From contig CM035357.1 in the NCBI GenBank assembly GCA_020137815.1, positions 558,001-622,000 of the forward strand: 64,000 bases of DNA, written 5' to 3'. Position numbers and translations under genes: made by a program. Below are positions 76 to 64,000 of the stretch, in pieces. Position 1 is the stretch's first letter; the number at the start of each line of letters is the position of its first letter. A model generated the notes under the pieces. That model saw only the letters and a program-made list of their open reading frames with translations, did no database searches and had not been told where the DNA came from. This stretch comes from Hormiphora californensis. Taxonomy: Eukaryota > Animalia > Ctenophora.

Positions 76-22882
<22,807 letters not shown>

Positions 22883-31327: not shown

Positions 31328-33051
31328 GGGAGGTAATTGGAATCTTGGAGAGGATCAAAACCAAATAATAATGCCTGAAGTATCTGGGTCTGAAAACGGA
31401 GATCTTCTGAATCTGTGACACAGTGTGCCAATGTCTCCCGCCACATTGTTTAGTGCGCGGAGGACGCGCAGACCTCAGTATGTTGAAAGTACACCGTGTC
31501 AGCAATTCAAACCATTCTTTGCCCGACCCTCTTTTGGTAGAAACACCCCTCGTGCTGGAAAGGATTCACGCTCCCCCTCGTTATTATGCAAATTATCTTC
31601 TTGTTCGTAGCACGGACACTGTCATGCGACTCAATGATGTTCAGGGTAACTTTCAACATTTGGACAGAGACTCTGAGCTTATTGGTTTTTAAAGAGTATT
31701 AATATTTATTACTTCACACAATACAATTACATTCCAAAATGTACAACTGAATTTCCTAGAGAAAGTGTTTCTCCCTTTTCCTAGTGTCTGTGTCCGAAAA
31801 TCTTCTCTTTCGCCTTTTTATACCATCTCTCCTGAAACGAAACGGGTGTTATCACATAATGTATTTACACTTTACAGCTAGGACAGATGTCAAAAGGAAT
31901 GGTTTTCTATTCAAAAGGAAAAGAAGAATGAAGTGAGAATAAAAATGGGCTGAGATGATCAGATTGCACTGTCATGGCCTGACATGGATTTCTTAGGTGA
32001 GTATTCAACAATGTTCCTTTAAACGTCTTTTCAAAGTTCGATAACTGTTGTTGAATCGCTTTCAGTTGGTTAAGTCGAATGGAGAACTTGAGTGAAACCA
32101 CCACGGACAGGGATTGAGAAAGTTCTACTGACCATCAAAATATCAAGGTAAAATCCACTTACCCCCCCCCCCCCCCATTATCCTTCTCAATTATCTTAAA
32201 GTTGTCACCTCCACCTCCAAATAACTCCCTCCAATTACCTTTCGTTTGTTGGGGCTGTCTTCATCATCACTAACATCGTCGACATCAGCAATTCTCTGAT
32301 TGGGTACTGCGTAATAGGTGCTCCCTCCCCCACTTCCCTTACTCTGTGGGGTGATGTGGGGTTAGGGGGTTAGATAGATGTGTATATAGAGGCCGAGGGG
32401 ATATATGGGGTTAGCTAGTTACTCTGAATGGATATATTATGTCGTGTTAGAGGGGATACATGTGGTTAGAGAGAGGATATTATCACGCATATAACCATTA
32501 TAGTCAGCGCCCAGGATCATCAAAGTGGTTAAATAATTAAACGTTTATCCGGATTTACACAACTCGCATCCATAACTCGCTGCGATTCTCACTCCACCTC
32601 TCACCCTTCTCACTCTGTCTATAGTAATGTGTGTAATTACATAATTACAGACACACACATTCTTCGAGGCAATCTCTCTCTCACATTATTCTCTGTACAT
32701 CTAGTCTCTCACTCAAACCAATCACTGAAATATCCAGGGGATTAACGATAATGGGTGCATGCAGAGAAGGCGAAAAATCCTACGTAAACCACCACACCCG
32801 GCGCAAGGGGGACGGGAACTGACCGGGAGTAGGTCACTGGGTATCAACGAGGGGGCTTCAGGAGGAACCACAGCAACCCAACCCTATCAACTTTACCTTG
32901 CCTAGCTCGACCCCCTTTAGGAGGGTCAGAACATAACAAACTCTACCTTGCCTAGCTCGACCCCCTTTAGGAGGGTCAGAACATAACAAACGAGTTCTGA
33001 TTGGTTGTTTACTTGTTTCGGTCGGTTCCTGGTTAGAACATAACAAACTTT

Positions 33052-33230
33052 ACCTTGGGTAATGGTGGTGCAACAACACTCAAACACATCCTACCTGGGG
33101 TAATGGTGGTGCAACACTCAAACACATCCTACCTGGGGTAATGGTGGTGCAACACTCAAACACATCCTACCTGTGGTAATGGTGGTGCAACACTCAAACA
33201 CATCCTACCTGTGGTAATGGTGGTGCAACA
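33052..33230 (-). repeat. 38-41-bp tandem array of exon end plus donor (gttgcaccaccattaccacag|gtaggatgtgtttgagt), ~5 copies
   Basis: The first copy in transcript direction is the donor at 33208. Confidence 0.8.
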
Positions 33231-39900: not shown

Positions 39901-40278
39901 AGTTAGGTTGTGTGAAAGCACTTGGAGTAGGTCCGTCATCAATCGAAATCTACGGTAGGCAGAGAAAAGATGGAAATTACATCCGCCGATCTGAAGTATA
40001 AACACATAAACCCGTGACCCATCTTCTGACGTTAGAACACCGTATCCCACAGTGGGGCTCCCACCAGGTTCTATATGTTTCTTCTCCCCGACCAGACAAA
40101 TCTTCTCAACATCCTCTACCATGCTCCATGTTAGAGGAGGTGAAATTAGTGAGTTGTCAATGGTAGGATGTTTGATGATGGTAGAGGCTGAGACTAGGGA
40201 CCGGGTGCCTTCTGATCTGGTGACAAGGCACGTTTCACAGAGTGTTGGGAGGGCAACATGCTGGCTATCATCAGTCAT
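36928..40278 (-). CDS. DENN-domain + C-terminal WD40 protein (DENND3-like), copy 1, one 3.35-kb exon
   Basis: uDENN-like VLTSEDGSRVYVF; cDENN SEQQIVFVS...IKPLDWQVTYLPTLP...LEAP..YILG...DIVVVNID; terminal WD repeat AHSDLIPCI...TGSRSADGTIGIWK. Acceptor ttccag|gatATG just upstream (exon starts 40281). Confidence 0.82.
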   Translation of the reverse strand: MTDDSQHVALPTLCETCLVTRSEGTRSLVSASTIIKHPTIDNSLISPPLTWSMVEDVEKICLVGEKKHIEPGGSPTVGYGVLTSEDGSRVYVFILQIGGCNFHLFSAYRRFRLMTDLLQVLSHNLTDEGSWDFEVQDMLKTLSNIVIPAGDNIVIPIPKFSLTLTPPLLPGTGDLPLTLPFYYFTHLQILQIVASIISEQQIVFVSDNNPLRVLMIETFLSYIKPLDWQVTYLPTLPEALYLILEAPVGQYILGAESGILEEMPARGDIVVVNIDEGEVNLGCTADGLIRTLEYKVTQFEQCIPRSSLDFEISIIGQCFTSQADYEREKAEFKRRTELKILVFFQKILIELIGDQIFPELMSCPTSSNDQLSGNIMVSSLTHSLKTPLLKKTTTMEQVRACPDSFIRSRLERTPITVSPNLLSVDCLVTEHQHNPATLSSLLYIKSQLLLKDGLVLSAFTTLNKIFEVAGAAFFPGPSVFALMERLRKHPDLLGMIRDQPFAGQPVWAPLFNSISTAQPVMPNIELNKTWNRLTISEVLKEMGVTRDHTAGEKVFDLLKDSRGEVSGEDWTSFLSLWGGLKDSLVRNLPFNLHHKPNMLECFVKISQPADSTQLNSITLVCTVFRLYFIHRITGQIVDSISLSEVSNFKLKTATSLQFKLRNGDQKEAVNIRHATHWVIILEEVICGLSRYTLTKNQSIIQEVVGNILLYEALVAYEAKQGEIVEVDSTSGRSSFYRQAVRHAEVLAFRKSPVQPPSSTEHVLAKFRPDPDQQETVVFVVAGARGNVYVGTRSCTIYKVSVEDNTVIGTLKLMTTSTNPKEWELFGACCTIGNLYVTLQFRQACSLYEIESGGGRRKFGNYSYKTFPLNKMKGQRIIGMSAILTNPAIVSDGGEVLLWSSYNSVEEECKSANVGEPVSCVARWDDWKVGISIQGKILQWAPLFDTAYPDDPIFPEEYPGFITWYENEQLPTLTSMRPISYSHNGNINDAVFGVTRSGTILYIKHWGVLETIEPPTPGISFYTIAPPTYDAYAYDGMMLMEINPPSIEKCGRLILSSRSCALHVYDLVTKKWTVAIDQAHSDLIPCIVALTKENGDKVVVTGSRSADGTIGIWKVDK

Positions 40279-41037
40279 ATCCTGGAACAGAAACGAGTTT
40301 AGGGTGCGTTAGACGATCAATTCAAAATGGTGGTCTATCTAGTACTTTTACGTTGATTATTCATTATTTAATGATGTTCTAACTGATGATAATAGATACG
40401 ACTACTAATTTCTCATTAATTAGGGGATAATTATCCCTTCAGTAAATCGATAACAGGCAAATAGTCGCAGTCCTGTCGACATCTACACTTCAAAACTCCG
40501 AATTTTCGGTTTAAAGTGAGAGTGGACCGGATCAGAATTGATCTCAGACAAAAAATTGAGCACCATTTCAAAAATCACCGCTTGGGCTGATACACCTTGG
40601 TATCCTCTACAAATCCCCAAAATTTCAGCCTTCTAGCCCTAAAATTAAATTTTAGGAACCTTAAAAACCGCGATTTAGGGTCCTCTTTTTTCCAACTTTG
40701 AGCCTCAAAGTTTGAGTTTGGTCGCGCACGGTGTCTATGTCACCAACTGTCGTTTTAGTTTCAATAACAACCGTGTCCTGTCCTTTCCATATTTGCGCAC
40801 CGTTTTTCTTCCGCACGTTAGATCTTTTCCCTTGATTTGCCACTCAGTTACACTTGTCCCACGACATACAAACACACTAGCATTGGGGAAAGGTAGAGAA
40901 ATAACCCTAATCCACAATGTGACATAATAATATTTCTCTTAGAGTGGTCATCTGACATAATCCAACGTGGGATTCAACGTGGAATTCGACGTGGAATTCG
41001 ACGAGGAATTCTACCAGATCAGAGAGACGCGCCGCAC

Positions 41038-41997: not shown

Positions 41998-42146
41998 GTT
42001 CCGTTCAACTACTCCTCGTTAATCTTCTGAGAGCTCTGCTCAATCCATCTCTTTTCTAAAGACAAGACAAGTCTGGTGTTCCTGTCTCCCTCTACATTGA
42101 GCAAGCCTTAGGAGACCTCGTTGAGTCAAATCCGGGAAGCCAAATC

Positions 42147-43490
42147 TTGGTGGAGCGGTCCCTCGCGTCACTGTTACAGGATAGAATGTCGGGTGTGGCA
42201 CCCCAGTATGGAAATGGAATGACACGAACGAAGAAAGATTATGAAGGTGAGTTACTTGGCACGAGTTTCTCTGACAGATGTAAAGGCAGTACAGTGGTGA
42301 AGTGCCTGGAAGAGGGAAGAATGACCCCGCCGGATGGACCTACCAGAGAACACCTATGGAGAATGATTGTTATGTGCTACAACATGCTTCCTGACACATC
42401 TCGGTGTGCAACCCTATCTTCTGAGTCTGGAGTTTCGTTCTCGTGTGATGACCTGAAGGACAGTTTCTCGAAACTGAAGCAAGACCTGATTGATAGCCTC
42501 CCTGGACTTGTAGCCCCAAAAGTGAGTGAAATATTGAAAGTTAGCCAAGAGGAGAATGGAAGTGGTACCAGTCGAAGTATTGATCACCTGGCTAAGAAAC
42601 CATCACCACCAACCCCTGTCAAACGGTATGTAAATATCAAAGACACAAGTGATGAAGGAGTGACCCCTATGTGTGAGGAGAAATGGACCACTGTGGTGAG
42701 ATCGAAAGTGGAGAAGGCGTTGAAGAACATTCCTGTTCTTGATACTTCCGTGAATAGGAAGCACACTCAATTGTTCTTTGAGACTGATGATGATCTGAAG
42801 GAGGCAGAGAAGGCTCTATCACCTTTTCTGGATGTCACTCCGGTAGTTGAGAAACAGAAGAAGAGAGACCCTCGACTGATGATTTCTGATCTTGATCAGG
42901 ATCTATTGAACAAGGATGCGCTGATGGATGCCATCCTTAGTGATAAAAATGAGGGAATTAAGAGGCTACATCAGGCGGGGCAGGCGATCAATGTTGTACA
43001 CGTCAATATCCCAGGGAAGTATGCAGTGATCAAGGTTGCACCCGAAATTCGGACAACGATTGCCAACAACCGAGACAGGATTTTCCTGAAACTACGACAG
43101 CATATTGTGAAGGACAGATTCTATGTGACACAATGCTTCCATTGTCAGCGATATGGACATGTTGCAGGATCCGTTTACTGTCCTAACAAAGATAAGAGTC
43201 CCACCTGTGCATTCTGTTCAGGGGACCATGACACCAGACAGTGTAATGCGAAGAAGGACAATGATCTTGGTAGAATGAAGTGTGTCAACTGTGATGTTGG
43301 AGGTAGCAAAGAGGATAAGAGATATGCGAAATCTCACCCAGCATCAAGCAACTTGTGTCCGCATTATGTGAATGCTAGAGGACGACTCATGGAGAACACA
43401 AGTGGAGTCACAAAGGAGCGAAAAAACTCCTATCTGACGAGGGCGTGGGAAGATCTGAAAGTAAAGAGACGTGGAGGATCGGTACATTAA
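42147..43490 (+). CDS. LINE ORF1 (Gag-like, CCHC zinc knuckles)
   Basis: QCFHCQRYGHVAGSVYC, CAFCSGDHDTRQC, CVNC...HPASSNLC. The first ATG is probably at 42186 (MSGVAPQ). Confidence 0.85.
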   Translation: MVERSLASLLQDRMSGVAPQYGNGMTRTKKDYEGELLGTSFSDRCKGSTVVKCLEEGRMTPPDGPTREHLWRMIVMCYNMLPDTSRCATLSSESGVSFSCDDLKDSFSKLKQDLIDSLPGLVAPKVSEILKVSQEENGSGTSRSIDHLAKKPSPPTPVKRYVNIKDTSDEGVTPMCEEKWTTVVRSKVEKALKNIPVLDTSVNRKHTQLFFETDDDLKEAEKALSPFLDVTPVVEKQKKRDPRLMISDLDQDLLNKDALMDAILSDKNEGIKRLHQAGQAINVVHVNIPGKYAVIKVAPEIRTTIANNRDRIFLKLRQHIVKDRFYVTQCFHCQRYGHVAGSVYCPNKDKSPTCAFCSGDHDTRQCNAKKDNDLGRMKCVNCDVGGSKEDKRYAKSHPASSNLCPHYVNARGRLMENTSGVTKERKNSYLTRAWEDLKVKRRGGSVH

Positions 43491-46400
43491 ATGTACACTC
43501 CATTCAGAATAAAACGTCTGGGGTCATTACACATCTTGAGGATAAGAAATGTGATATCTAACTATATCTAATGCAAATTTGCATGGAAATGTAACACCCT
43601 ATCGTCAATGTGACGACGTGATCCGTCAGTGTGACGACGTGATCCGTCAGTGTGACGATGTGATCCGTCAGTGTGACGACGTGATTCGTAGGTATCACGT
43701 ATCACACGTGTTGAGAACTGCTTGCGACTTGAGGGGTCACATCACATGTATAAAAGGGAGAGAAAGAGAAAAAAAGAGAGGGATCACATCACATAGCAGA
43801 CAGGCAGAGAGAAAAACATAGAAACAGACCCCTCGATTTGCGATCGGTACGATCGCCCCAGTTTTGCTAGTATGTCTAATTCAGGAAACATACCTAAAGA
43901 ATACGGATACAGCTAAACTTCAGGAGATACGAGATTATGGCTGGAATATCTTTTCATCACCAAGAGCGGAGAGAGCGGGAGGAGGAATTGGTATTCTCTA
44001 CCGGGATGGAGTGAAGGTCAGGCTGTCACCTGTTCGAAATTTTCTGTCTTTTCAGATACAGGAGGTTTTAATTGGGGACGGTGCCGATCTCACTCGGTTA
44101 TGTAACATTTACAGACCCCCCTATACGGGTAAAGCTCGGTTTACTGAGGCGAAGTTCCTGGATGAATTCGCGGATTATCTCTCTGAACTGGTGTCAAAAA
44201 CAGGTCTTCCTCTGATCATGGGTGATTTTAATTTCCAGTGGCAGGATGGGAAAAATTTCTACACCAGAAAGCTAGCTGAACTCCTGGACTCTCTGGAATT
44301 TTCTCAGCTTGTTCCTAGGCAGCCTACCCACAATCGTGGAGGTACACTTGATCTAGTGGTTTGCCCGAAGGAAGTGGAGGAAAAAGTCAAATCCTTGGAG
44401 ATTTACCCTGATGGGACTGAATCCGATCATTTCCTAGTCTTGAGTGAGGTTTCCCTGGAAACCAAGCATGGCGACATGCAGGACCGAAATCGTGTCAATA
44501 CCTACAGAGACTTCAAATCAGTGGACCCAGTTTTGTTTACTAAAGCCGTTAGAGGACTGAATCTTGAGGATCGTATGCTGGAGGACTCCCCTGAAGAGAA
44601 CTTTGAGATCTATGAGCGAGAACTAGAGGAATTAGTGGATACTACTGTCCCATTGAGGAGGAGAAAGAAAGTTAAGAAGCTTCGCCCGTGGAGAGACAAT
44701 GAGGAGGTCAGACAGGCACTTAGACTCCGTCGGTGTGCTGAGAGGGCGTGGGAGGGTAATAAAACCCCCATCACGAAGAAGCAGTACAATGCTATGAAGA
44801 AGATGTTTGGAAAAGTTGACAAGGAAGCGAGGATTAACTACGTCAAAGCAGATCTCGAAGAATCTAAAGGGGACTCCAATGGCCTACAGAGGAAACTCAA
44901 CCGACTGCTGGGAAAAAGTGAGGTAGTACTACCTGAAACAGGATGTGATCGTAAACTTGCTGAGGATTTTGCGGACTTCTTTACTGGTAAAGTTGAGAAA
45001 ATCAGAAATTCTGTTACTGCGGAGGAGCATGCTTATGAGGATGTGGAATCTCTTGAGGACTCGGTTAGGAATTGTACGTTCGAGGAATTCAGGGAAGTCT
45101 CTTGTGAGGAGATTAAGAGGATAGTGAAGGATATGGCGGATAAGACGTGTGATCTGGATCTGATACCAACGTGGATGATTAAAGAGTGTATCGAAGTTTT
45201 TGCTCCTCTGTTTACAAGAGTTATTAACTCCTCTCTTCGCAAAGCTGTTGTTCCAGAGACGTTTCAGCAAGCCTTTGTTTTTCCCACCATTAAGAACCCT
45301 AATGGGGATAGGGACAGCCTATCTAACTATCGCCCGGTATCGAACCTACCATTTATCTCAAAAGTTCTTGAGAAGGTGGTACTTGACCAGCTCAACGAGT
45401 TCCTTCAGGAGAATGACTTACTGAACCCTCACCAGTCGGGGTACAGGGTAGGCCATAGTTGCGAGACTCTACTTATGGGAATGTTTGATGACCTTTTACA
45501 GGAAATGGACAAGGGTAATGTTGTTGCCCTTCTTCTTTTGGATATGTCGGCTGCCTTTGACACTGTGGATCATTCTAAGCTTGTGGACGTTCTGAGTAGG
45601 AGGTTTGGAGTAAGAGGAGCAGCCCTTCAGTGGTTTATCAGTTATCTTGGATCGAGGAACTTCAGAGTGAACGTGCGAGGAGAACTATCAAGGATGATTT
45701 ATTTGATATGTGGGGTACCCCAAGGATCCCTCCTTGGTCCAGTCTTGTTTCTTCTCTATGTGGAGGAACTTCAGGATCTGGTGCGTGCATATGGGCTTAA
45801 AATTAAGCTATATGCAGATGACTCACAGATTTATGTGAGTCTGGTTCCCTGTGATGAAGACCAATGGAAAGGAACGAAGAGGAATGTTGAGGAATGTCTT
45901 GATCGCCTCAAGGCATGGATGGTCAAGCACTGGTTGAAATGCAATGAGTCGAAGACGGAACTTCTTATCCTGGGTAAAAGTAGTGCTATCGATAAGCTTA
46001 CTTTTGAACCGTCGGTTAGGTTTGGGGATGTGGATATCGGTCCTATTGACTTCAAGGGTACTTCGGGCAAGACTCTGGGTATTTACATGGATGAAAACTT
46101 GACTTTGGAGCGTCAGGTGAACAGTGTGAGAAAACATTGTGGAATGCTGTTGAAGAATTTATGGCAGGTCAATCGTTGTCTGGACTTCTCCACCAAAGTT
46201 CTCTTGGTGAAGCAGCTTGTTATCTCCCGTCTGGATTATTGTAATATCCTTTATGGAGGTCTTCCAAAGAAGCTCATTGCCCGCCTTCAGAAGGTGCTCA
46301 ATTCCTGTGTTAGGTTCATCTACGGACTTCATGGTCATCAAGATGATTACCTGCCCTACCTGAGGGAGACTCACATTCTCCCTATTGAGCAACGTGTTGT

Positions 46401-46719
46401 CTTCAAATCATGTCTTATGGCCTACAAGATCATACATGGAAGTGCTCCAGACTACCTCTGTGAGCAAATACCTGCGGACAATGTACTGGATGTACCCCGC
46501 CGGACCAGAGCGACTACTGTGCCCGATCTCTTTAAGCTCCGGTACCCCAAACTGTCGAGTGTGAATGCCAGTTCTAAACTGAGGAAGAGGAGACCGTCAG
46601 TTCTCCTACCGGACCTTTGGAATGCCCTCCCCCTCGATCTGAGGTCGTTGACCACTGTGGAATCGTTTAAGACCCGTCTCAAGACAAGACTGTTCGTGGA
46701 ATCCTTTGGGGCTGACTAG
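43421..46719 (+). CDS. LINE ORF2, APE endonuclease + reverse transcriptase (N-terminus disrupted by Helitron 43557-43870)
   Basis: Removing the Helitron restores WRIGTLNVHSIQNK...CDICLIQET. Also GGGIGILY, IYRPP, MGDFN, SDH, NYRPVSNLPFISKVLEK, LLDMSAAFDTVDH, GVPQGSLLGP, YADD. Confidence 0.92.
43557..43870 (+). mobile_element. Non-autonomous Helitron
   Basis: Inserted between A and T with no TSD. Starts TC, ends CTAG, with a hairpin gcgatcg-gta-cgatcgc at 43840-43856. Confidence 0.9.
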
Positions 46720-47589
46720 TTGTGTCTTTCCTCTTTCCAGATTTCCCCTATCGCTATCCTATCACTCGCTGTACTGTCTATCAGGTAAGACGTGTGTTTG
46801 TACTGTGTGTCCCTCGTGACAAGTTTTTCTAGCATATCTTTTTGGGTTTGAAGCACGAGTGTCTGAGTGTGTAATACTATTTTTATTCAGTGTTCAGTTT
46901 CCGCTTTTTCCTGGGCGATGTCTGTGTTGAGGGTGGTGTCAGATTTATCTGAACCTTTTTTGATCTGATAAAGTTTTTTGGAGATGTGTAAAGGTTGTAG
47001 AGGATATTTTTTGAAGCTATATTTTTTGTCTTCTTACCATTTATGTCTGTTATGAATCCGATTGTATTTCTTCCATCTTATGAGAGCAGGTTAATTTGGT
47101 TTTTACCACCGTTTTTGAATCTAATTTTGGTTGAGTGTGTGAGTAAACTGCTCTGATTATCCCTCAGTGGCAGTATTAGCTATACTATGCTGTCCCTGGG
47201 GGATCTGGGCAGGATACAAGTCTAGATATTATTATTATTATTAGTTAGTCTTTACCATTTACATCTCTCTCACTACGAATGCGTGGCACATCCCACGTCG
47301 AATTTCTCGTCGAATTTCACGTCGAGATATGGCAATTATGTCGGATGACCACAGTTACATAATCGATTTATAATACAAATCAGTTTTATCATCAGGAGCC
47401 GTGAACATAATCGTGAACCCAGCATTATTGTCAGTTTCCGGTTTCCCATTTCTGTACTAATTTCTGTACTACTTATCCACTTTCCAGACTCCAATGGTTC
47501 CATCCGCTGACCTAGAGCCAGTAAGCCGGTAACGACTTGGTGATATAGACACCGTGCGCGACCAAGATTGAGCACCAGGTGTCTATATC

Positions 47590-47633
47590 GAGTTTCAAAC
47601 TTTTCAACACTACTTTAAACAAAATAATTTGAG
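47590..47633 (+). other. Spliced-leader-like sequence at the 5' end of the ORF1-only insert
   Basis: gagtttcaaacttttcaacactactttaaacaaaataatttgag begins exactly at the insertion boundary. Confidence 0.75.
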
Positions 47634-47688
47634 CAGGTTGATATGGTGATGTGACCGCCCCAAAGGGCAGAAAAGTGAAACGCTGATA

Positions 47689-48724
47689 ATGAAGCCGATG
47701 TATGAAGATAAAAGATTGGATAATATTCTTCGCCTACCGTACGAGGGCGATAACCCCAAGATAAAACAACTGATCGAATCCATTGATGACTTTGTTTTGG
47801 GAGTTGAACGGCTGCATTGGGCTGCTGTTCCCGAACAACAGATAAGTACTACACCCGAGAACGTTAGTCAATGCTATAATTCCATCAAATATGCACCTGC
47901 GAGGGATTTTACCCCTGATTGCTCGAGCCCAACCGAAAATAACATGGGGACATTCTTCAAACATCGTCTCAAGGACCTTTCTCCAAAACAAGTTGTTGAT
48001 GTCACCACCAACCTCTTTGTTTCCAGTGCTAAACTTGCTCAAGCAGCGATGAACAATTTGAACACCGTAATCACTGCAGAAAAACTCGAGAAACAACTCT
48101 CTGCGTGCAAAGAAGAGCTTGAACGAAATCGTGTTTTGGTCATTGAACTGCAACAAACGGTCATCAATGCCCAGAAAGAACAACTGAGCTCAGTGGAAAC
48201 GTCAGTGCAGAAGGTGAAAGCCTACTCGACAGTCCTGGCTCAAAACTATGCCGCTGGCCGCAGCCTCCCCTATTATGAAAAAGCTACCAACTCCCCCTAA
48301 GCCACCAACTTCGAAGCCTCTTTCTCCTACAGTAGTACCCCAGACAAATCGAGAGAAGAACTTGGTAATATTTGGGCTCCCAGAATCAACTGAGAATGCT
48401 GATAGAACCAATATGGATGAACTATTTGAAGAACTGAACGAGAAACCGAAAGTTGCTAACATGAAACGTATCGGTGAGAGAAACGAGGAACGCCCTAGGC
48501 CGCTCTTGGTATCTCTTGAGAAGAGAGCAACCCTTTTGGCGATCCTGAAGAAGGCACGGCAGCTCAAAGAATCCAAAAAACACTTTTCCATATATTTATC
48601 ACCGGATCTTAACCCCTCCCAACTAAAGGAGCGAAAAGCTCTGCTGGCCACCTTGAAACGGGTTCGGACAGATGATCCAAGTGGCAATTATTACATCAGA
48701 AACAATGTGATCCAAGTCGGATAG
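47689..48724 (+). pseudogene. ORF1p-like gene with one frameshift (ORF1-only insert)
   Basis: 47689-48300 (coiled coil, KAYSTVLAQN) plus 48248-48724 (REKNLVIFGLPE, RIG..RPRPLLVSL, IYLSPDL, YYIRNN). Homologous to 17296-18285. Confidence 0.78.
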
Positions 48725-49041: not shown

Positions 49042-51889
49042 TTACTGTCCAGTGTCCACTTTCCAGACTCCAATGGTCCCATCTGCTGACCTAGAACCGG
49101 TCACGACCACCTTTCCCCCATTTTCCTTTTTCATAGTAACTATGCACGGTATTAGATCTGAGTGTGCTTGGTTGATAGTTAATGTCCACTTTTTGGTAAC
49201 CAAATCATAAACATGAAGTGAACATGAACGAGAACTTAGTATTAGTCTGCCACACTTTTCAATCGACGGTGGATTAAATTCCTGCATCGGTATCATCCTA
49301 TCATAAGCGACCGTAGGTGGTGCGATGGTGTAAAAGCTTATTCCGGGTGTAGGTGGCTCAATTGTCACAGGAGCACCCCAAGACTTGATGTAGAGAATCG
49401 TACCAGACCGAGTAACTCCAAAAACTGCATCATCATTGCTACGATTGGAAACTGAAAGTGGAAGCATTGAAGTAAGGGCAGGTAACTGTTCATCTTCACA
49501 CCATGTCATGAAATCAGGATGACTACATTCAGCGTTAAGTGGATATATGTTCCAAATATAAGCAGCACTTGATGAGGGTCCCCATTGTAAAATCTTTCCC
49601 CGAATTGATATGCCAACCTTCCAATCGTCCCAACGAGCCAAGCATGAAACTGGCTCACCTACATTCACAGATTGAGTCAGTTTTTCATCCAAAGACCACA
49701 GAAGTAACTCACCTCCATCCGACACAATAACAGGCATACCTTCCATCGCAGACATACCAATTATTCTTTGGCCTTCCATTCTTTTCAGAGGAAACGTTTT
49801 GTAGCTGTAGCCAAACTGTTTTCTTCCCCCTCCGCTTTTGATTTCATATAAGCTCCAAGCTTGCCTGTATTGAAGTGTTACATATAAAATATTCATAGTC
49901 CAGCACGCACCAAACAACTCCCAATCTTTCGGATTCGTTGAAGTCGTCATGAGCTTCAGAGTCCCAATAACTGCGTTATCCTCAACAGAAACTTTGTAAA
50001 TAGTACAACTTCTAGTCCCCACAAAAACATTTCCTTCGTACCCCGCTACCACAAACACTACAGTCTCTTGTTGGTCTGGATCAGGTCTGAACTTGGCCAG
50101 AACGTGTTCGGCATGCCCAACTACCTTTCGGTAGAAGGAAGATCTCCCTGAGGTTGAATCCATCAATGGGAATACCGAGGGTCCGGGGAAGAATGCTGCT
50201 CCTGCTACCTCAAAGATCTTGTTAAGGGTGGTGAATGCTGGCAAGACCAACCCATCTTTTAACAGGAGTTGTGATTTGATGTACAACAGTGATGACAGTG
50301 TTGCAGGGTTGTGTTGATGTTCTGTTACTAAACAATCAACTGACAGCAGGTTGGGTGAAACAGTAATTGGTGTTCTTTCTAGTCGGGACCTGATAAAACT
50401 GTCCGTGTCTGGGGAAGCTCGAACCTGTTCCATCGTTGTGGTTTTCTTCAAGAGTGGTGTTTTGAGCGAATGGGTCAGGGAGGATACCATGATGTTTCCA
50501 CTCAGTTGGTCGTTAGAAGAGGTGGGACAGGACGTTGACTCAGGGAAGATTTGATCTCCAATTAACTCGATCAGAATCTCTTGGAAGAAAACTAGAATTT
50601 TCAGCTCCGTTCGACGCTTGAACTCTGCCTTTTCCCGTTCATAATCTGCCTGACTTGTAAAGCACTGCCCAATAATGCTTATCTCAAAGTCAAGGCTGGA
50701 TCTCGGAATACACTGTTCAAATTGTGTAACTTTATACTCCAGTGTCCTTATCAAACCGTCCGCAGTACACCCCAAATTAACCTCCCCCTCATCAATGTTC
50801 ACAACCACGATATCACCCCTAGCAGGCATCTCTTCTAGAATCCCACTTTCAGCTCCTAAAATGTACTGGCCAACTGGAGCCTCCAGAATCAGGAACAGGG
50901 CTTCTGGGAGGGTGGGGAGATAGGTAACTTGCCAATCAAGGGGCTTGATATATGACAGGAAAGTCTCGATCATTAGGACTCTCAGTGGGTTGTTATCACT
51001 TACAAACACTATTTGTTGTTCGGAAAGGATACTGCCAACAATTTGAAGGATCTGTAGGTGTGTGAAGTAGTAGAAGGGAAGTGTTAGGGGTAGATCACCT
51101 GTCCCGGGTAGAAGAGGCGGGGTGAGAGTTAGGGAGAATTTTGGTATGGGAATCACAACGTTGTCTCCTGCAGGTATCACTATGTTTGACAGTGTTTTTA
51201 GCATGTCCTGCACCTCGAAATCCCAACTACATTCATCAGCTAGGTTGTGGGAAAGCACTTGGAGTAGGTCCGTCATCAATCGAAATCTACGGTATGCCGA
51301 GAAAAGATGGAAATTACATCCGCCAATCTGAAGTAAAGTCCGATTTTTAATAATGTGAACGGGGGGCGCGCAAAAAACTTTCCCACGCACCGTGGGAAAG
51401 TTTTTTTTCGTTTTGTTTCGATCATTTCTCTGGCTCCTGATAAGATAAAGACTTGATCTTGGTTGCATTGAAAAGGTCTTAAAATTATCTTTCCGATACT
51501 TCCGAGATCAAGTCTTAAGATTGTCAAGAACAGAATTTAGCACGCGCAAATAGAATTAAGTGGAATTAAGTGCGCGCCCCCCGTTCACATTATTAAAAAT
51601 CGGACTTTATAAACACATAAACCCGTGACCCATCCTCTGAAGTTAGAACACCGTACCCCACAGTGGGGCTCCCACCAGGTTCTATATGTTTCTTCTCCCC
51701 GACCAGACAAATCTTCTCAACATCCTCTACCATACTCCATGTTAGAGGCGGTGAAATTAGTGAGTTGTCAATAGTAGGATGTTTGATGATGGTAGAGGCT
51801 GAGACTAGGGATCGGGTGCCTCCTGATCTGGTGACAAGGCACGTTTCACAGAGTGTTGGGAGGGCAACATGCTGGCTATCATCAGTCAT
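49042..51889 (-). pseudogene. DENN+WD40 copy 2: internally deleted and interrupted by a MITE (pseudogene unless the MITE is spliced out)
   Basis: N-terminus near-identical to copy 1. In-frame deletions of 243 and 16 codons, divergent WD40 region, and a MITE at 51336-51607. Confidence 0.7.
51336..51607. mobile_element. MITE with TA TSD inside DENN copy 2
   Basis: TIR aagtccgatttttaataatgtgaacggggggcgcgc. The empty site gaagtataaac is seen in copy 1 (~39995). Confidence 0.85.
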
Positions 51890-52039
51890 ATCCTGGAACA
51901 GAAATAAAATATTGTCTTCATTCCAACAGGCACAAGAAGATAAGAATCAGTGGAGAAATGACGGAGTCGCGGTACAAAATTGGCAAACGTTGCTGGCCCC
52001 CACGCGCAGCGCGGGATAAGGCAGCGCTTTTCAAGGTAC

Positions 52040-55815: not shown

Positions 55816-57664
55816 TTAAAGTTGCATTATCAAATCTGCGAACAGTCTGACAGAAAAAAGGACAAAGAAGTGGAAAATTAATAATCTTCCAATAGTTACT
55901 CTGTCGCCACTCCAGCTTCTACAAGTTCCAAAGCTGCCTTTGGTTCAGGCTGACAGGCCAGGAGTGTTAGCATTTTCCTGTGGACCTGAAGAATTCAAAT
56001 CATTAATTCTTGGCTGAAATCCAATCTATCAGTATCATCATGATAAATTGCCTTGGGGCCCAGAGAGACTGGTGGATCTATCAAAGTTAAGCTTGGCAAA
56101 CACAATCCGGGGTGTGTCACCATGGCAACCCCCTTCAAAATCCCATGACAACCCCCTTCAAAATCCGATTTGTCACCATGACAACCCCCTTCAAAATCCC
56201 ATTTGTCACCATGACAACCCCCTTCAAAATCCCATGTGTCACCATGACAACCCCCTTCAAAATCCCATGTGTCACCATGACAACCCCCTTCAAAATCACA
56301 TATGTCACCATGACAACCCCCTTCAAAATCCCATTTGTCACCATGACAACCCCCTTCAAAATCCCATGTGTCACCATGACAACCCCCTTCAAAATCCCAT
56401 GTGTCACCATGACAACCCCCTTCAAAACCACATATGTCACCATGACAACCCCCTTCAAAATCCCATTTGTCACCATGACAACCCCCTTCAAAATCCCATG
56501 TGTCACCATGACAACCCCCTTCAAAATCCCATGTGTCACCATGACAACCCCCTTCAAAACCCCGTGACAACCCCCTTCAAAATCCCATGTGTCACCATGA
56601 CAACCCCCTTCAAAATCCCATGTCTCACCATGGCAACCCCCTTCAAAATCCCGTGACAACCCCCTTCAAAATCCCATGTGTCACCATGACAACCCCCTTC
56701 AAAATCACATATGTCACCATGACAACCCCCTTCAAAATCCCATGTGTCACCATGACAACCCCCTTCAAAATCCCATGTGTCACCATGACAACCCCCTTCA
56801 AAATCCCATGTGTCACCATGACAACCCCCTTCAAACCCCATGTGTCACCATGACAACCCCCTTCAAAATCCCATGTGTCACCATGACAACCCCCTTCAAA
56901 ATCCCATGTGTCACCATGACAATCCCCTTCAAAACCCCATGTGTCACCATGACAACCCCCTTCAAAATCCCATGTGTCACCATGACAACCCCCTTCAAAA
57001 TCCCATGTGTCACCATGACAAGTGACAACCCCCTTCAAAATCCCATGTGTCACCATGACAACACCCTTCAAAATCCCATGTGTCACCATGACAACCCCCT
57101 TCAAAATGCCATGTGTCACCATGACAACCCCCTTCAAAATCACATATGTCCCACAATTACCTTGACGTGGATCTCGTGGTGTTTAAATATCTCCCCATCT
57201 ATATTCCAACAACTGCATTTTTCACATTCCAGCGCATCCCGGGGATCCTCTAGACAGTCCCGGATATGATCAGATGATGAGTCGGGGGTTGTCGGTTGTC
57301 GGTGGTTACAGTCACCACGGAAACGGAATTCCGTTACCCGATGGACGTCCACTAGATCACCCGTAAACTGCAAAACGGTTAACGGATGTCATGAAAACTT
57401 TCGAACTGGCGATGGTTTGTTTTATGTCACGTGATGCCCAAATATGGCATGTCACGTGATGTCAAAATATGGTGTGTCACGTGATGTCCAAATATGGTGT
57501 GTCACGTGATGCCCAAATATGGTGTGTCACGTGATGCCCACACTTACTGGTTTGCTAAAGAAGGCTGTGTTGAAAAGGTACTTGAAGTATCTCATTCCAC
57601 TTGCTTGTCGGTGGATTATCAAGTCAAGACACCCGTCACCAAGATGTGCCGAGGGGGAGAGACC
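55816..57664 (-). CDS. CERK: 3' exons of a ceramide-kinase-like (DAGK/SphK family) gene; 5' part not located
   Basis: Exons 57664-57548, 57367-57161, 55985-55900, 55846-55816 give GLSPSAHLGDGCLDLII..., VDVHRVTEFRF, SCWNIDGEIF...IHVKVHRKML. These match recalled CERK motifs GLSPxAHLGDG, VEVYRV and SSWNCDGE...VRVH. Confidence 0.8.
56112..57147. repeat. 33-bp minisatellite (~31 copies) filling a CERK-like intron
   Basis: Unit gtgtcaccatgacaacccccttcaaaatcccat. Confidence 0.95.
57424..57540. repeat. 25-bp tandem repeat (~4-5 copies) with CACGTG cores
   Basis: Unit gtgtcacgtgatgcccaaatatggt. Confidence 0.85.
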
Positions 57665-57666
57665 CT

Positions 57667-60600
57667 GGGAGGATATAGGATGTGAGGTGGTACTGCAAGG
57701 GGGACAGACCCTGATAAAGGGATAAGAGGTGATACAAGGGGGACAGACCCTGGGAGGATATAGGATGTGAGGTGGTACTGCAAGGGGGACAGACCCTGAT
57801 AACGGGATAATAGAGGTGATACAAGGGGGACAGACCCTAATAAAGGGATAATAGAGGTGATACAAGGGGGACAGACCCTGATAAAGGGATAAGAGGTGAT
57901 ACAAGGGGGACAGACCCTGATAAAGGGATAAGAGGTGATACAAGGGGGACAGACCCTGATAAAGGGATAAGAGGTGATACAAGGGGGACAGACCCTGATA
58001 AAGGGATAAGAGGTGATACAAGGGGGACAGACCCTGGAAGGGATAAGAGGTGATACAAGGGGGACAGACCCTGGAAGGGATAAGAGGTGATACAAGGGGG
58101 ACAGACCCTGATAAAGGGATAAGAGGTGATACAAGGGGGACAGACCCTGATAAAGGGATAATAGAGGTGATACAAGGGGGACAGACCCTGATAAAGGGAT
58201 AAGAGGTGATACAAGGGGGACAGACCCTGATCATGATAAAGGGATAATAGAGGTGATATAAGGGGGACAGACCCTGGAAGGGATAAGAGGTGATATAAGG
58301 GGGACAGACCCTGGGAGGATATAGGATGTGATACAAGGGGGACAGACCCTGGAAGGGATAATAGAGGTGATACAAGGGGGACAGACCCTGATAAAGGGAT
58401 AAGAGGTGATACAAGGGGGACAGACCCTGATAAAGGGATAAGAGGTGATACAAGGGGGACAGACCCTGATAAAGGGATAAGAGGTGATACAAGGGGGACA
58501 GACCCTGATAAAGGGATAATAGAGGTGATACAAGGGGGACAGACCCTGATAAAGGGATAATAGAGGTGATACAAGGGGGACAGACCCTGATAAAGAGATA
58601 AGAGGTGATACAAGGGGGGGGGGACAAACCCTGAGAGGGATAATAGAGGTGATACAAGGGGGACAGACCCTGATAAAGGGATAAGAGGTGATACAAGGGG
58701 GACAGACCCTGGTAAAGGGATAAGAGGTGATACAAGGGGGACAGACCCTGATAAAGGGATAAGAGGTGATACAAGGGGGACAGACCCTGGGAGGGATAAG
58801 AGGTGATACAAGGGGGACAGACCCTGATAAAGGGATAAGAGGTGATACAAGGGGGACAGACCCTGATAAAGGGATAATAGAGGTGATACAAGGGGGACAG
58901 ACCCTGATAAAGGGATAAGAGGTGATACAAGGGGGACAGACCCTGATAAAGGGATAAGAGGTGATACAAGGGGGACAGACCCTGATAAAGGGATAAGAGG
59001 TGATACAAGGGGGACAGACCCTGATAAGAGGGGATAAGAGGTGGTACAAGGCCCAAGGGGGACAAACCCTGATAAAGGGATAAGAGGTTATACAAGGGGG
59101 ACAGATCCTGGAAGGGATAAGAGGTGATACAAGGGGGACAGACCCTGGTAAAGGGATAATAGGTGATACAAGGGGGACAGACCCTGATAAAGGAATAATA
59201 GAGGTGATACGAGGGGGACAGACCCTGGAAGGGATAAGAGGTGATACAAGGGGGACAGACCCTGGTAAAGGGATAATAGGTGATACAAGGGGGACAGACC
59301 CTGATAAAGGGATAAGAGGTGATACAAGGGAGACAGACCCTGATAAAGGGATAAGAGGTGATACAAGGGAGACAGACCCTGATAAAGGGATAAGAGGTGA
59401 TACAAGGGGGACAGACCCTGGAAGGGATAAGAGGTGATACAAGGGGGGACAGACCCTGGAAGGGATAAGAGGTGATACAAAGGGGACAGACCCTGGTAAA
59501 GGGATAAGAGGTGATACAAGGGGGGACAGACCTGATAAAGGGATAAGAGAGGTGATACAAGGTGGACAGACCCTGGTAAAGGGATAAGAGGTGATACAAG
59601 GGGGACAGACCCTGATAAAGGAATAAGAGGTGATACAAGGGGGACAGACCCTGATAAAGGGATAAGAGGTGATACAAGGGGGGACAGACCCTGATAAAGG
59701 GATAAGAGGTGATACAAGGGGGACAGACCCTGATAAAGGGATAAGAGGTGATACAAGGGGGACAGACCCTGATAAAGGGATAAGAGGTGATACAAGGGGG
59801 ACAGACCCTGATAAAGGGATAAGAGGTGATACAAGGGGGACAGACCCTGATAAAGGGATAAGAGGTGATACAAGGGGGACAGACCCTGATAAAGGGATAA
59901 GAGGTGATACAAGGGGGACAGACCCTGATAAAGGGATAAGAGGTGATACAAGGGGGACAGACCCTGATAAAGGGATAAGAGGTGATACAAGGGGGACAGA
60001 ACCTGATAAAGGGATAAGAGGTGATACAAGGGGGACAGTCCCTGATAAAGGGATAAGAGGTGATACAAGGGGGACAGGCCCTGATAAAGGGATAAGAGGT
60101 GATACAAGGGGGACAGACCCTGATAAAGGGATAAGAGGTGATACAAGGGGGACAGACCCTGATAAAGGGATAATAGAGGTGATACAAGGGGGACAGACCC
60201 TGATAAAGGGATAAGAGGTGATACAAGGGGGACAGACCCTGATCATGATAAAGGGATAATAGAGGTGATATAAGGGGGACAGACCCTGGAAGGGATAAGA
60301 GGTGATATAAGGGGGACAGACCCTGGGAGGATATAGGATGTGATACAAGGGGGACAGACCCTGGAAGGGATAATAGAGGTGATACAAGGGGGACAGACCC
60401 TGATAAAGGGATAAGAGGTGATACAAGGGGGACAGACCCTGATAAAGGGATAAGAGGTGATACAAGGGGGACAGACCCTGATAAAGGGATAAGAGGTGAT
60501 ACAAGGGGGACAGACCCTGATAAAGGGATAATAGAGGTGATACAAGGGGGACAGACCCTGATAAAGGGATAATAGAGGTGATACAAGGGGGACAGACCCT

Positions 60601-62810
60601 GATAAAGAGATAAGAGGTGATACAAGGGGGGGGGGACAAACCCTGAGAGGGATAATAGAGGTGATACAAGGGGGACAGACCCTGATAAAGGGATAAGAGG
60701 TGATACAAGGGGGACAGACCCTGGTAAAGGGATAAGAGGTGATACAAGGGGGACAGACCCTGATAAAGGGATAAGAGGTGATACAAGGGGGACAGACCCT
60801 GGGAGGGATAAGAGGTGATACAAGGGGGACAGACCCTGATAAAGGGATAAGAGGTGATACAAGGGGGACAGACCCTGATAAAGGGATAATAGAGGTGATA
60901 CAAGGGGGACAGACCCTGATAAAGGGATAAGAGGTGATACAAGGGGGACAGACCCTGATAAAGGGATAAGAGGTGATACAAGGGGGACAGACCCTGATAA
61001 AGGGATAAGAGGTGATACAAGGGGGACAGACCCTGATAAGAGGGGATAAGAGGTGGTACAAGGCCCAAGGGGGACAAACCCTGATAAAGGGATAAGAGGT
61101 TATACAAGGGGGACAGATCCTGGAAGGGATAAGAGGTGATACAAGGGGGACAGACCCTGGTAAAGGGATAATAGGTGATACAAGGGGGACAGACCCTGAT
61201 AAAGGAATAATAGAGGTGATACGAGGGGGACAGACCCTGGAAGGGATAAGAGGTGATACAAGGGGGACAGACCCTGGTAAAGGGATAATAGGTGATACAA
61301 GGGGGACAGACCCTGATAAAGGGATAAGAGGTGATACAAGGGAGACAGACCCTGATAAAGGGATAAGAGGTGATACAAGGGAGACAGACCCTGATAAAGG
61401 GATAAGAGGTGATACAAGGGGGACAGACCCTGGAAGGGATAAGAGGTGATACAAGGGGGGACAGACCCTGGAAGGGATAAGAGGTGATACAAAGGGGACA
61501 GACCCTGGTAAAGGGATAAGAGGTGATACAAGGGGGGACAGACCTGATAAAGGGATAAGAGAGGTGATACAAGGTGGACAGACCCTGGTAAAGGGATAAG
61601 AGGTGATACAAGGGGGACAGACCCTGATAAAGGAATAAGAGGTGATACAAGGGGGACAGACCCTGATAAAGGGATAAGAGGTGATACAAGGGGGGACAGA
61701 CCCTGATAAAGGGATAAGAGGTGATACAAGGGGGACAGACCCTGATAAAGGGATAAGAGGTGATACAAGGGGGACAGACCCTGATAAAGGGATAAGAGGT
61801 GATACAAGGGGGACAGACCCTGATAAAGGGATAAGAGGTGATACAAGGGGGACAGAACCTGATAAAGGGATAAGAGGTGATACAAGGGGGACAGTCCCTG
61901 ATAAAGGGATAAGAGGTGATACAAGGGGGACAGGCCCTGATAAAGGGATAAGAGGTGATACAAGGGGGACAGACCCTGATAAAGGGATAAGAGGTGATAC
62001 AAGGGGGACAGACCCTGATAAAGGGATAAGAGATGATACAAGGGGGACAGACCCTGGAAGGGATAAGAGAGGTGATACAAGGGGGACAGACCCTGATAAA
62101 GGGATAAGAGGTGATACAAGGGGGACAGACCCTGATAAAGGGATAAGAGGTGATACAAGGGGGACAGACCCTGATAAAGGGATAAGAGGTGATACGAGGG
62201 GGACAGACCCTGATAAAGGGATGAGAGGTGATACGAGGGGGACAGACCCTGGTAAAGGGATAAGAGGTGATACAAGGGGGACAGACCCTGGAAGGGATAA
62301 GAGGTGATACAAGGGGGACAGACCCTGATAAAGGTATAAGAGGTGATACAAGGGGGACAGACCCTGATAAAGGGATAAGAGGTGATACAAGGGGGACAGA
62401 CCCTGATAAAGGGATAAGAGGTGATACAAGGGGGACAGACCCTGATAAAGGGATAATAGAGGTGATACAAGGGGGGACAGACCCTGATAAAGGGATAAGA
62501 GGTGATACAAGGGGGACAGACCCTGATAAAGGGATAAGAGGTGATACAAGGGGGACAGACCCTGATAAAGGGATAATAGAGGTGATACAAGGGGGACAGA
62601 CCCTGGAAGGGATAAGAGGTGATACGAGGGGGACAGACCCTGATAAAGGGATGATAGAGGTGATACAAGGGGGACAGACCCTGATAAAGGGATAAGAGGT
62701 GATACAAGGGGGACAGACCCTGATAAAGGGATAAGAGGTGATACAAGGGGGACAGACCCTGATAAAGGGATAAGAGGTGATACAAGGGGGACAGATCCTG
62801 GAAGGATATG
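57667..62810 (-). repeat. 39-bp satellite (~130 copies) derived from the CERK-like exon acceptor
   Basis: The minus-strand unit cttatccctttatcag|ggtctgtcccccttgtatcacct mirrors the real junction atatcctcccag|ggtctctccccc at 57664. Confidence 0.92.
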
Positions 62811-64000
62811 ATGTGAGGTGATCTGAAATCGGAATGGGAATTAGAACTATGTTTAAATCCTGTGAATCAAGGTCATAGTCGTGTTGTTATTGGTTCTCTG
62901 CCCGACTCCAAAAATCACAACCTTCACTGCGCTGGCAAGCAAAAAGGTGGCCCCTTCCCCTAAACTTCCCCAAAGCATTATACACAAGTTACAGCATGTA
63001 CAGGGTGTTCATGTGGATTTTGGGGGGATTTTTTGTGCTGTTACAATACTAGGGATTTTGAGCTTCACCCAGAAAAAAGTTCAGCGGGGGGAACTCAGGT
63101 TCTTCGTGCCAGCTGAGTTCTTCGAGCTCAGTCCCGTTGCCGTGGACCTGGTTGGCTGATGGTCCAGTGATTACGGTCAAATCACACCGGCTCTCTCCCC
63201 AATCTTGGGGAGTAAACTTTGCCAGAGACCTTGCCGAACTCAACTATGGCACCGAGCTCTAGCAGTGCGGCTGGTCCCTGCTGGGATTTGGTTCGGCGGT
63301 CGATTGATGAGCGGTTGGTTGACGATTGATATCAGTCGTTGATCGATCGTTTGTCGGTCGGTCGTCGGGCTGAGTCTTAGTGAGGATCCCGGTTGAACTG
63401 ATAATCTCACCCCAGCCAGTAACCTTGTTACACATGGCAACCCATGATTTGTAATCACCGAGGGCCTCTGCCTACTAGGCATGCCTGATGACCCTTCGGC
63501 TGTCTCCCATTTAATTATGGGGGGTAAATTCTACGCCAGAGAACTAGCCTCCCTCAATTATGGCAACCCATGATTTGTAATCACCCGGCAGCTGTAGCCT
63601 TTAAAACAGCCCTCCTGTCCAACATCCCATATTGGTCGGACGGAGGTTACCTTCTCTCACAAAAATAGGGGTTATTCCCCTGGGGAACCTCTGCCCAAAT
63701 TTTTGCCACATACTACCTTTGCAATATATCTAGAACAATCCTCCTCACTAACAAACAGATCAAGCAACACACTTGATTTGGTAATATTCTCCAAACTAGT
63801 ATACAGAAGTAACCTATTCGAATAAACCATCCCCAACCATCCCGATCTGAAAGAAGTAGCAAACCACAGGGCAAGAATCGCTACGGCCGGGGAATTCCAA
63901 CAAAACCACATCATAAGGGACCCACGATTAAGGTAGGGCAGGTCTGGGCCATAACAAAGGGCCACCTCCGCCGTATGGCAAGTAATTACCCCGCAATAGT

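Follow-up and report, generated by a model that had tools for sequence, protein, structure and literature searches.

A 130-copy minisatellite built from a ctenophore CERK intron-exon junction and likely removed with its intron

The original paper on the amphioxus minisatellites called mirages is reportedly that of Canestro et al. 2002. In the available parts of two reports, mirages are described at amphioxus Adh3, the globins BflGb6 and BflGb9, troponin C and PGBD5, without disturbance of splicing (PMC3087553, PMC3902484). For the VNTR of human F7, the available part of the report describes functional pseudo-sites that go unused, with the exon-proximal site winning; for a repeated acceptor, the textbook 3' site rule of first-AG scanning would favour upstream copies (PMC1557585). 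Here we analyze a tandem repeat next to an exon of a ceramide kinase gene (CERK) in a ctenophore, "the window" being the whole 64-kb stretch of DNA considered. The CERK array is a mirage, i.e. an intron-exon-boundary minisatellite of the type known from amphioxus. We read it as a 130-copy minisatellite of the CERK junction that likely arose by local duplication and is likely spliced out with its intron via the acceptor at 57664, and we give this reading a probability of about 0.8.

Anatomy of the CERK array

The features first needed are as follows.
57548..57664, minus strand: CERK exon GLSPSAHLGDG...FFSKP, 117 nt, phase 0 to 0 (tblastn and RNA contigs)
57161..57367, minus strand: next CERK exon, FTGDLVDV...HEIHVK, 207 nt (tblastn and RNA contigs)
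55896..55985, minus strand: last coding CERK exon, VHRKMLTLLACQ...stop (tblastn and contig loose ends)
57665..62823, minus strand: mirage minisatellite, 130 copies of ~24 nt of intron end (ending in AG) plus 15 nt of exon start
62797..62823, minus strand: copy 1, the most distal, with an ancestral-type intron end kept
57749..57775, minus strand: copy 129, an out-of-frame decoy with the same intron-side sequence as the authentic site, from which it lies 85 nt upstream

The 117-nt exon has its acceptor AG at 57666-57665 and its donor after 57548, and its extent is matched by two RNA contigs (X7 record 14 and X3 record 2). The joint from 57548 to 57367 is present in RNA contigs of X1 and X3, and the loose ends of X1, X2, X3 and X5 before 57159 match, by eye, the last coding exon. 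Four ctenophore-type CERKs (including those of Mnemiopsis and Bolinopsis) share 74-90% identity with the exon peptide, and six others 41-53%. A relaxed tblastn search found no upstream CERK exon in the window, and the intron bearing the array must thus be longer than 6.3 kb, as that exon lies outside.

The units are arranged head-to-tail directly ahead of the acceptor at 57664, with a modal length of 39 bp, a range of 37-48 bp and 37 distinct variants; 50 of the 130 are identical. TRF gave a period of 39 and 129.5 copies over 57696-62800, in agreement with the 130 copies found by an AG-anchored pattern. The minus strand holds 131 AG/G sites, namely the 130 upstream copies (62797 to 57710) and 57664 itself; the AG end is kept in every copy, and junction sites account for 131 of the 134 AGs on the sense strand of 57665-62830. 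The unit spans a real host intron-exon boundary (57664 being fixed by contig X7 and by homologues), with splice signals kept in the copies. The interior is concerted and excludes the edge copies, the ancestral form also occurring inside the array: copy 129 has retained an intron end of ancestral type (distance 2), as have copy 1 at the distal extreme and copies 64 and 115 (distance 8), and the true site shares this form. Copy 1 would mark the upstream edge of the original duplication.

A sequence-only reading of this stretch had described a 5.1-kb satellite of some 130 copies of the CERK 3' splice junction, derived locally from it. The counts above bear out the description, the junction similarity held on alignment (at least 13 of the 15 exon-start bases in 98/130 copies, 93 at 13 and 5 at 14), and the local derivation is supported by the exact register and by the edge copies. 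That reading had also seen proximal copies grading into the true acceptor, and here it was mistaken, as there is no gradient: copy 130, which adjoins the true acceptor, is of consensus type (distance 13), and it is copy 129 that lies at distance 2.

As the unit joins intron end to exon start and carries the ancestral form at both edges, we propose that a piece of ~40-46 bp across the acceptor was duplicated in tandem. Slippage or unequal exchange would then have expanded and homogenised the interior, such turnover being suggested by the unit variants, the retained edge copies and the duplication of a 1.86-kb block with no mismatch:
58108..61975, strand not assigned: higher-order duplication, block 60120-61975 (1856 bp) against 58108-60119 (2012 bp)

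This inner block may be a recent duplication or an assembly artefact, which should be considered when referring to the copy number. If two reads or alleles were stacked, the array would be real but inflated, with a true count near 80 (~3.1 kb), a possibility that is compatible with our main reading and that we regard as somewhat unlikely. The two halves differ by 0 mismatches and one 156-bp (four-unit) gap, and elsewhere in the window a homopolymer-rich stretch (~16340-16870) resembles poor long-read sequence and Top2 carries a one-base frameshift. However, recent unequal exchange also yields perfect multi-unit duplications, and rare unit variants recur base for base, which argues for high local accuracy.

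Acceptor choice and reading frame

Contig X7 record 14 aligns to 57548-57664 with 7 differences over 117 positions, and the translation of its 29-nt loose end, SCCSPQANN, is that of the upstream exon. A contig ~94% like the CERK exon hence joins the upstream exon exactly at 57664. In X3 record 2, the match stops at 57664, one base short of the contig end. Some properties of these data need to be considered: the X7 and X3 contigs are ~92-94% alike over the CERK exon and their source animals may be without the array, and every RNA contig is ~2-8% different from the window, perhaps representing a sister species or population that lacks it. As the contigs possibly come from such relatives, they place the exon start rather than demonstrate the skipping of decoys. 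No contig of the eight RNA runs covers 57680 or beyond (the stretches examined end at 57720 and 57760), an absence that is no proof; contigs lose rare isoforms, and a single one spans the junction and has an upstream part that can be read. An X10 contig (<90% alike, 47 bases) represents a more distant spliced CERK and was left out of the count, and short contigs that align to a 25-bp intronic repeat (57428-57540) were disregarded, their flanks being unrelated. We also considered the pyrimidine tract as old coding sequence, PISSQ aligning with PQASK, and rejected this, because SCC is conserved ahead of the tract in the four ctenophore proteins and the RNA loose end has other sequence in its place. 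With a relative's mRNA joined at the last copy only, the array is likely a tolerated repeat; the earlier alternative that ~130 decoys must be skipped is supported.

Against a local matrix built from 25 acceptors, 120 of the 130 decoys score at least as high as the true acceptor, for which a branch-point-like motif is predicted:
57682..57686, minus strand: predicted branch-point-like motif CTCAC for the authentic acceptor, with its A at -19
A YTNAY motif with its A at -15 to -40 occurs in only 8/130 decoys, as compared to 20/25 other acceptors of the window, while 101 decoys have one with its A at -10 to -14. Given these scores and the near motifs, the decoys are not plainly dead. YTNAY is enriched at real acceptors (20/25 against 14.0, P = 0.01), whereas the narrower CTNAY is not (10/25 against 8.3), such that the branch-point argument rests on YTNAY. 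We propose that the homogenised copies have no well-placed branch-point-like motif and only poor donor-like sites, as predicted from their sequence, and that exon definition likely leads the spliceosome to match the last AG to the donor lying 117 nt downstream. As the exon-proximal acceptor at 57664 would be chosen, the array would be removed with the intron, near neutral and with no coding role.

It is unlikely that leaky decoys instead act as a dosage dial, with copies 130, 129, 128 and 127 used appreciably, their products degraded and array length tuning CERK. If copy 129, with its authentic-type intron side, were used, the exon would be 202 nt long. Most decoys score no worse than the true site, and a human minigene with duplicated splice sites showed low-level recognition of them, according to the available part of that report (PMC3265369). 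On the other hand, no contig of the eight RNA runs enters copy 130 or 129, an argument that is weak as the contigs come from relatives, and in the available parts of the mirage reports no aberrant mRNA is produced (PMC3087553, PMC3902484).

The same reading had proposed that upstream copies could insert variable (GLSPLYHLLSLYQ)n tracts into the kinase, and we consider this use of in-frame copies to be very improbable. It drew on the frame:
57527..61099, minus strand: stop-to-stop ORF of 1190 codons, beginning in the array, crossing the exon and ending in the next intron
The claimed ORF, 57527-60862, does run into GLSPSAHLGDG, but its stop-to-stop end is 61099, 60862 being a TTG. The unit length, held to be a multiple of 3, is so for the modal 39 and in 88/130 units (85 of 39 nt), while 42/130 units shift the frame (16 of 41 nt, 14 of 37 nt and others). 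The long ORF agrees with a nearly stop-free sense strand, but this scarcity of stops equals that of shuffles: among 100,000 unit shuffles, 41% are stop-free in all frames and 77% in a given frame. The ORF is a by-product of the pyrimidine-rich unit. It mixes the three frames of the unit, with 31 GLSP, 26 VCPP and 14 GSVP over 1070 codons, and the longest (GLSPLYHLLSLYQ)n run in it is 4.

In favour of an insert, 63/130 copies are in frame (permutation mean 45, P = 0.036, with the duplication ignored) and 33/130 are in frame and open. The excess, however, vanishes with one duplicate block removed (31/79, P = 0.27; 27/83, P = 0.55). The four copies nearest 57664 (130, 129, 128 and 127) are all out of frame, and the nearest open copy, at 57877, would add 71 unrelated residues in mixed frames just before the conserved GLSP..H..DG motif. 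In the four ctenophore CERKs, MSCC..Q..K is followed directly by GLSP, as it is in the cDNA-like loci L001 and L002; a metagenome scan with the CERK alignment had yielded 2 loci from 175 candidates, both spliced, cDNA-like and distant. No insert before GLSP was found in the four CERKs, in L001 and L002 or in the junction-crossing contig, all of them from relatives. Thus, neither mark of a coding VNTR, units that keep the frame and a repeat present in mRNA or protein, is seen in the CERK array or, for the second, in these relatives.

We give hardly any credence to the copies being ratchet points of recursive splicing: in every unit a GT follows the AG at a distance of one base, and position +5 is a G, but a recursive site has a strong GT donor directly after AG, re-splicing here would leave one base and, due to this offset, shift the frame, and the in-unit GT scores 1.7 (115 copies; eight variants score 3.6-4.3), below all 26 real donors (2.3-10.9).

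Junction repeats in Top2 and at exon edges

The Top2 gene of the same window, in which the best match of the exon compared is Bolinopsis (80%, the other seven at 62-71%), contains five further junction repeats. Each of its 21 decoy acceptors would lead to a frame shift or a stop; over 26-42 nt of intron, some are the same as the real site. As such decoys match the real site yet would break the frame, position alone must be able to decide the acceptor. This argument assumes a working gene; the Top2 copy carries a partial duplication as well as a frameshift near 8530.

Tandem copies lie near 7/66 junctions of Top2 and CERK, and junction 20-mers are overall not repeated more often than intron 20-mers (7/66 against 155/661). 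In a rough seed-placement model, junction-derived arrays number 6/14 against 1.65 expected (P = 0.002), or 5/13 against 1.54 with the CERK array excluded (P = 0.01); it should be noted that the arrays were classified by hand after the data were seen and that intron length is inflated by inserted elements. We advance only tentatively, and hold doubtful, that mirages form preferentially at exon edges in ctenophores too, and that the spliceosome there selects the final acceptor from as many as 130 intact ones. With such a bias in a non-bilaterian lineage, repeat seeding tied to gene structure may date back to the origin of animals, and the CERK locus and Top2 arrays would offer a natural assay, variable in length, for exon definition outside the bilaterians.

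That a dispersed satellite or mobile repeat landed at CERK and resembles the junction by chance is extremely improbable: the local search for the unit spans just the 64-kb window, but 13-14 of 15 exon bases match in exact register with the AG, both array edges carry the ancestral intron end, the window holds no good match elsewhere (three, all with 4 mismatches in 20), a 24-nt piece had 0 matches in metagenome_contigs (a weak test), and the five unrelated Top2 repeats each match their own exon only.

Comparison with described junction repeats

The phylum, the array size and the rough excess of junction repeats at exon edges are new here. We found no description of a ctenophore mirage in the literature searched, a coverage that mostly leaves out subscription journals. 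The repeat class is extended from amphioxus to ctenophores, with 130 copies as against 2-9 in the published cases compared, as far as the available parts of these reports go. Arrays of this kind produce long spurious ORFs joined to genuine exons, and the CERK array points to no new protein function. If only the last copy is used in a carrier of the array, this would be a strong natural demonstration of 3' site choice led by the downstream exon rather than by first-AG scanning.

The following comparisons refer to the available parts of the cited reports. As in the amphioxus BflGb6 mirage, the CERK array repeats in tandem the 3' end of an intron and the 5' start of an exon. It shares with amphioxus mirages in general a unit within 10-160 bp, the kept AG, a homogenised interior with divergent edges and the occurrence of several independent cases in one region. 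Unlike those mirages, which have 2-7 copies, it has 130 (~80 if the inner duplication is an artefact), all with the AG kept, its ctenophore host is non-bilaterian, and its exon start is placed by contigs of relatives that may lack the array. Extra splice signals gained by tandem duplication are also the basis of the Rogers intron-gain model (AG/GT duplication), but there the duplication is purely exonic and creates a new intron, whereas in CERK an existing intron was only lengthened (PMC3265369, PMC2812944); the upstream part of the CERK unit is intron, with no match to the conserved SCCSPQA coding motif. In the 37-bp VNTR of human F7 intron 7, the edge unit likewise spans an exon-intron junction; the donor is repeated there at five to nine sites, while the CERK array repeats the acceptor at 130 (PMC1557585), for which first-AG scanning would predict the opposite choice.

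A minisatellite of copied acceptors in CERK

Tandem repeat detection placed a 39-bp array of 129.5 copies at 57696-62800, on the minus strand in an intron of the ceramide kinase (CERK) gene, and we regard it as a genuine mirage minisatellite of unusual length, that is, one built from copies of an intron-exon boundary, in a ctenophore. Two adjacent exons give a weak match to Pfam CERK_C, below the family cut-off. A search with the exon peptide found one full-length CERK (P0002), whose nearest named relatives are those of Mnemiopsis leidyi (72%) and Bolinopsis microptera (67%), and the 39-residue exon after the array is 74-90% identical to four ctenophore-type CERKs, as compared with 41-53% for six others tested. 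The exon upstream of the array intron is not inside the window and is placed beyond its edge.

Last three exons of CERK
57664-57548, minus strand, exon after the array, antepenultimate
57367-57161, minus strand, second of the three
55985-55896, minus strand, final exon

The second of these carries an insertion of about 21 residues (57226-57300, minus strand) relative to other ctenophore CERKs, spanned without gaps by the aligned RNA contigs. Both downstream introns also contain minisatellites, at 56143-57150 (33 bp x 31) and 57425-57540 (25 bp x 4.6), which start about 10 bases past the donor and do not copy the donor itself.

The array comprises 130 minus-strand units, every one ending in AG, followed by the true acceptor at 57664, which opens GLSPSAHLGDG. 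In each unit, a pyrimidine-rich stretch of about 24 nt closes with the AG and is followed by 15 nt resembling the exon start. The sequence-only reading that the unit reproduces the CERK acceptor junction is borne out: besides the AG in 130/130 units, 13 or 14 of the last 15 nt match the exon start in 98/130. Pyrimidines make up 74% of the sense strand, and junction sites account for 131 of the 134 sense-strand AGs in 57665-62830. Unit length is 39 bp in 85/130, 41 in 16, 37 in 14 and 38-48 in 15 more, so that the supposed multiple of three applies to 88/130 units and fails for the rest.

Three sites retain an intron end of ancestral type, marked by a CTCAC motif: the true acceptor, copy 129 and the most distal copy 1. 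Copies 64 and 115 keep it in part, and the remaining copies are homogenised (50 units are identical). This distribution suggests that the junction may have been duplicated first, with interior turnover following. The block of copies 22-68 (1856 bp) aligns to that of copies 69-119 (2012 bp) free of mismatches and with a single four-unit gap, pointing either to unequal exchange in the very recent past or to an error of assembly; in the latter case the count falls to about 80.

Exon start and coding potential

Contigs from 8 of 10 listed RNA runs were compared with the window. One contig (X7 record 14) differs from the window at 7 positions over 57548-57664; beyond 57664 its unaligned tail translates as SCCSPQANN, which is the upstream exon. 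In another (X3 record 2) the match breaks off at 57664, with one base of the contig left, and 57548 is joined to 57367 in runs X1 and X3. None of the contigs of the 8 runs covers 57680 or further. The RNA fixes the exon start at 57664; decoy skipping in an animal bearing the array is not thereby proven. The contigs diverge by about 2-8% from the window, which could be within-species if the two Top2 exon sets (seven exons in duplicate, 12547-16273 and 18403-20999, plus strand, differing at 66/950 bases) are haplotypes; a sister species without the array and the same species are equally possible sources.

The sequence-only reading further held that upstream copies could insert peptide tracts, a proposal that the data do not support. 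Copies in frame with the exon number 63/130, 33 of them open through to the exon, as compared with 45 +/- 9 after shuffling of unit order (P = 0.036), and this excess is lost once one copy of the duplicated block is removed (31/79, P = 0.27, or 27/83, P = 0.55). The long, nearly stop-free ORF does exist; it mixes the unit's three frames, its longest pure (GLSPLYHLLSLYQ)n run being four, and 41% of shuffled units are equally free of stops in all frames. None of the four copies nearest the exon is in frame; the nearest one that is (57877) would add 71 residues. No insert precedes GLSP in the four ctenophore-type CERKs, where MSCC, four residues and K stand immediately ahead of it, nor in the cDNA-like loci L001 and L002. 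The array bears no sign of selection for coding, and is likely neutral and spliced out.

Choice of acceptor

By a matrix derived from 25 acceptors elsewhere in the window, 120/130 decoys score at or above the true site, and AG plus tract therefore do not explain the choice. Two features set the true site apart. Its donor sits 117 nt downstream. GT sites within the units score 1.7 in 115 copies and 3.6-4.3 in 8 variants, as compared with 2.3-10.9 for 26 real donors. The true site, like 20/25 real acceptors (shuffles 14.0, P = 0.01), has a YTNAY whose A lies at -15 to -40; 8/130 decoys have one so placed, and in 101 decoys the motif is nearer, at -10 to -14. Exon definition would thus probably pick the true site, helped by the putative loss, in the decoys, of a correctly spaced branch point.

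Near copies of the own junction 20-mer lie within 600 bp at 7/66 Top2 and CERK junctions: acceptor 57664 of CERK and the following in Top2, which was annotated by Bolinopsis Top2.

Top2 junction repeats (four acceptors, two donors)
4708-4739, plus strand, acceptor 4739
7685-8447, plus strand, acceptor 8447
9312-9499, plus strand, donor 9338
9605-9823, plus strand, acceptor 9809
10165-10553, plus strand, acceptor 10540
18731-19063, plus strand, donor 18786

Each holds 1-8 extra copies. All decoy acceptors (21/21) shift the frame or meet a stop, and several match the real site exactly over 26-42 nt of intron; if Top2 works, the spliceosome must therefore favour the exon-proximal copy by position alone. 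This premise is weakened by a frameshift near 8530 and by the partial duplication. The frameshift, of one base at about 8528-8531 (plus strand) in a conserved exon, is an assembly error or marks a damaged copy, and the duplicated exons, whose donor repeat is not alike in the two sets, represent a segmental duplication or an uncollapsed haplotype. One Top2 exon of the window is nearest to that of Bolinopsis (80%, as compared with 62-71% for the other 7 matches), which, together with the CERK exon, identifies the host as a ctenophore. An inverted repeat of about 460 bp (10762-11213 / 11550-12009, 98% identity) lies within a Top2 intron.

Other repeats and known systems

Tandem repeats make up 11.5% of the window, the big array excluded, and repeated 20-mers are commoner in introns (155/661) than at junctions (7/66). 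Counted per array, 5/13 besides that of CERK are junction-derived, with about 1.5 expected under a rough placement model (P = 0.01), which should be considered a lead only. A 38-bp x 4.7 array at 33051-33230 (minus strand) resembles a donor repeated within an unannotated gene on the same strand, with a 50-bp pair nearby (32889-32991, minus strand). Two nearly intronless copies of a gene with DENN domain and beta-propeller (36931-40308 and 49042-51946, minus strand; Pfam DENN, E 4.9e-20) are 83-95% alike in DNA. The homopolymer-rich 16339-16866 resembles low-quality long-read sequence, and long ORFs at 42060-48721, 23671-24837 and 17299-18327 presumably encode LINE-type retroelement proteins.

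Our literature search for a ctenophore mirage found no case among the results listed. Passages on the Hormiphora genome in PMC8527503 describe high heterozygosity and many non-coding indels, and make no mention of junction repeats of this kind. The CERK array is notable for its host, its size and the natural experiment on acceptor selection that it offers. Mirage minisatellites are known from amphioxus (PMC3087553), and further cases, PGBD5 and troponin C, appear in passages of PMC3902484. Intron gain by duplication, as outlined in parts of PMC3265369 and PMC2812944, makes a new intron, whereas the CERK array makes none. In the human F7 VNTR, as passages of PMC1557585 have it, the donor is repeated five to nine times and the exon-proximal one alone is used; the CERK array, in contrast, repeats the acceptor.
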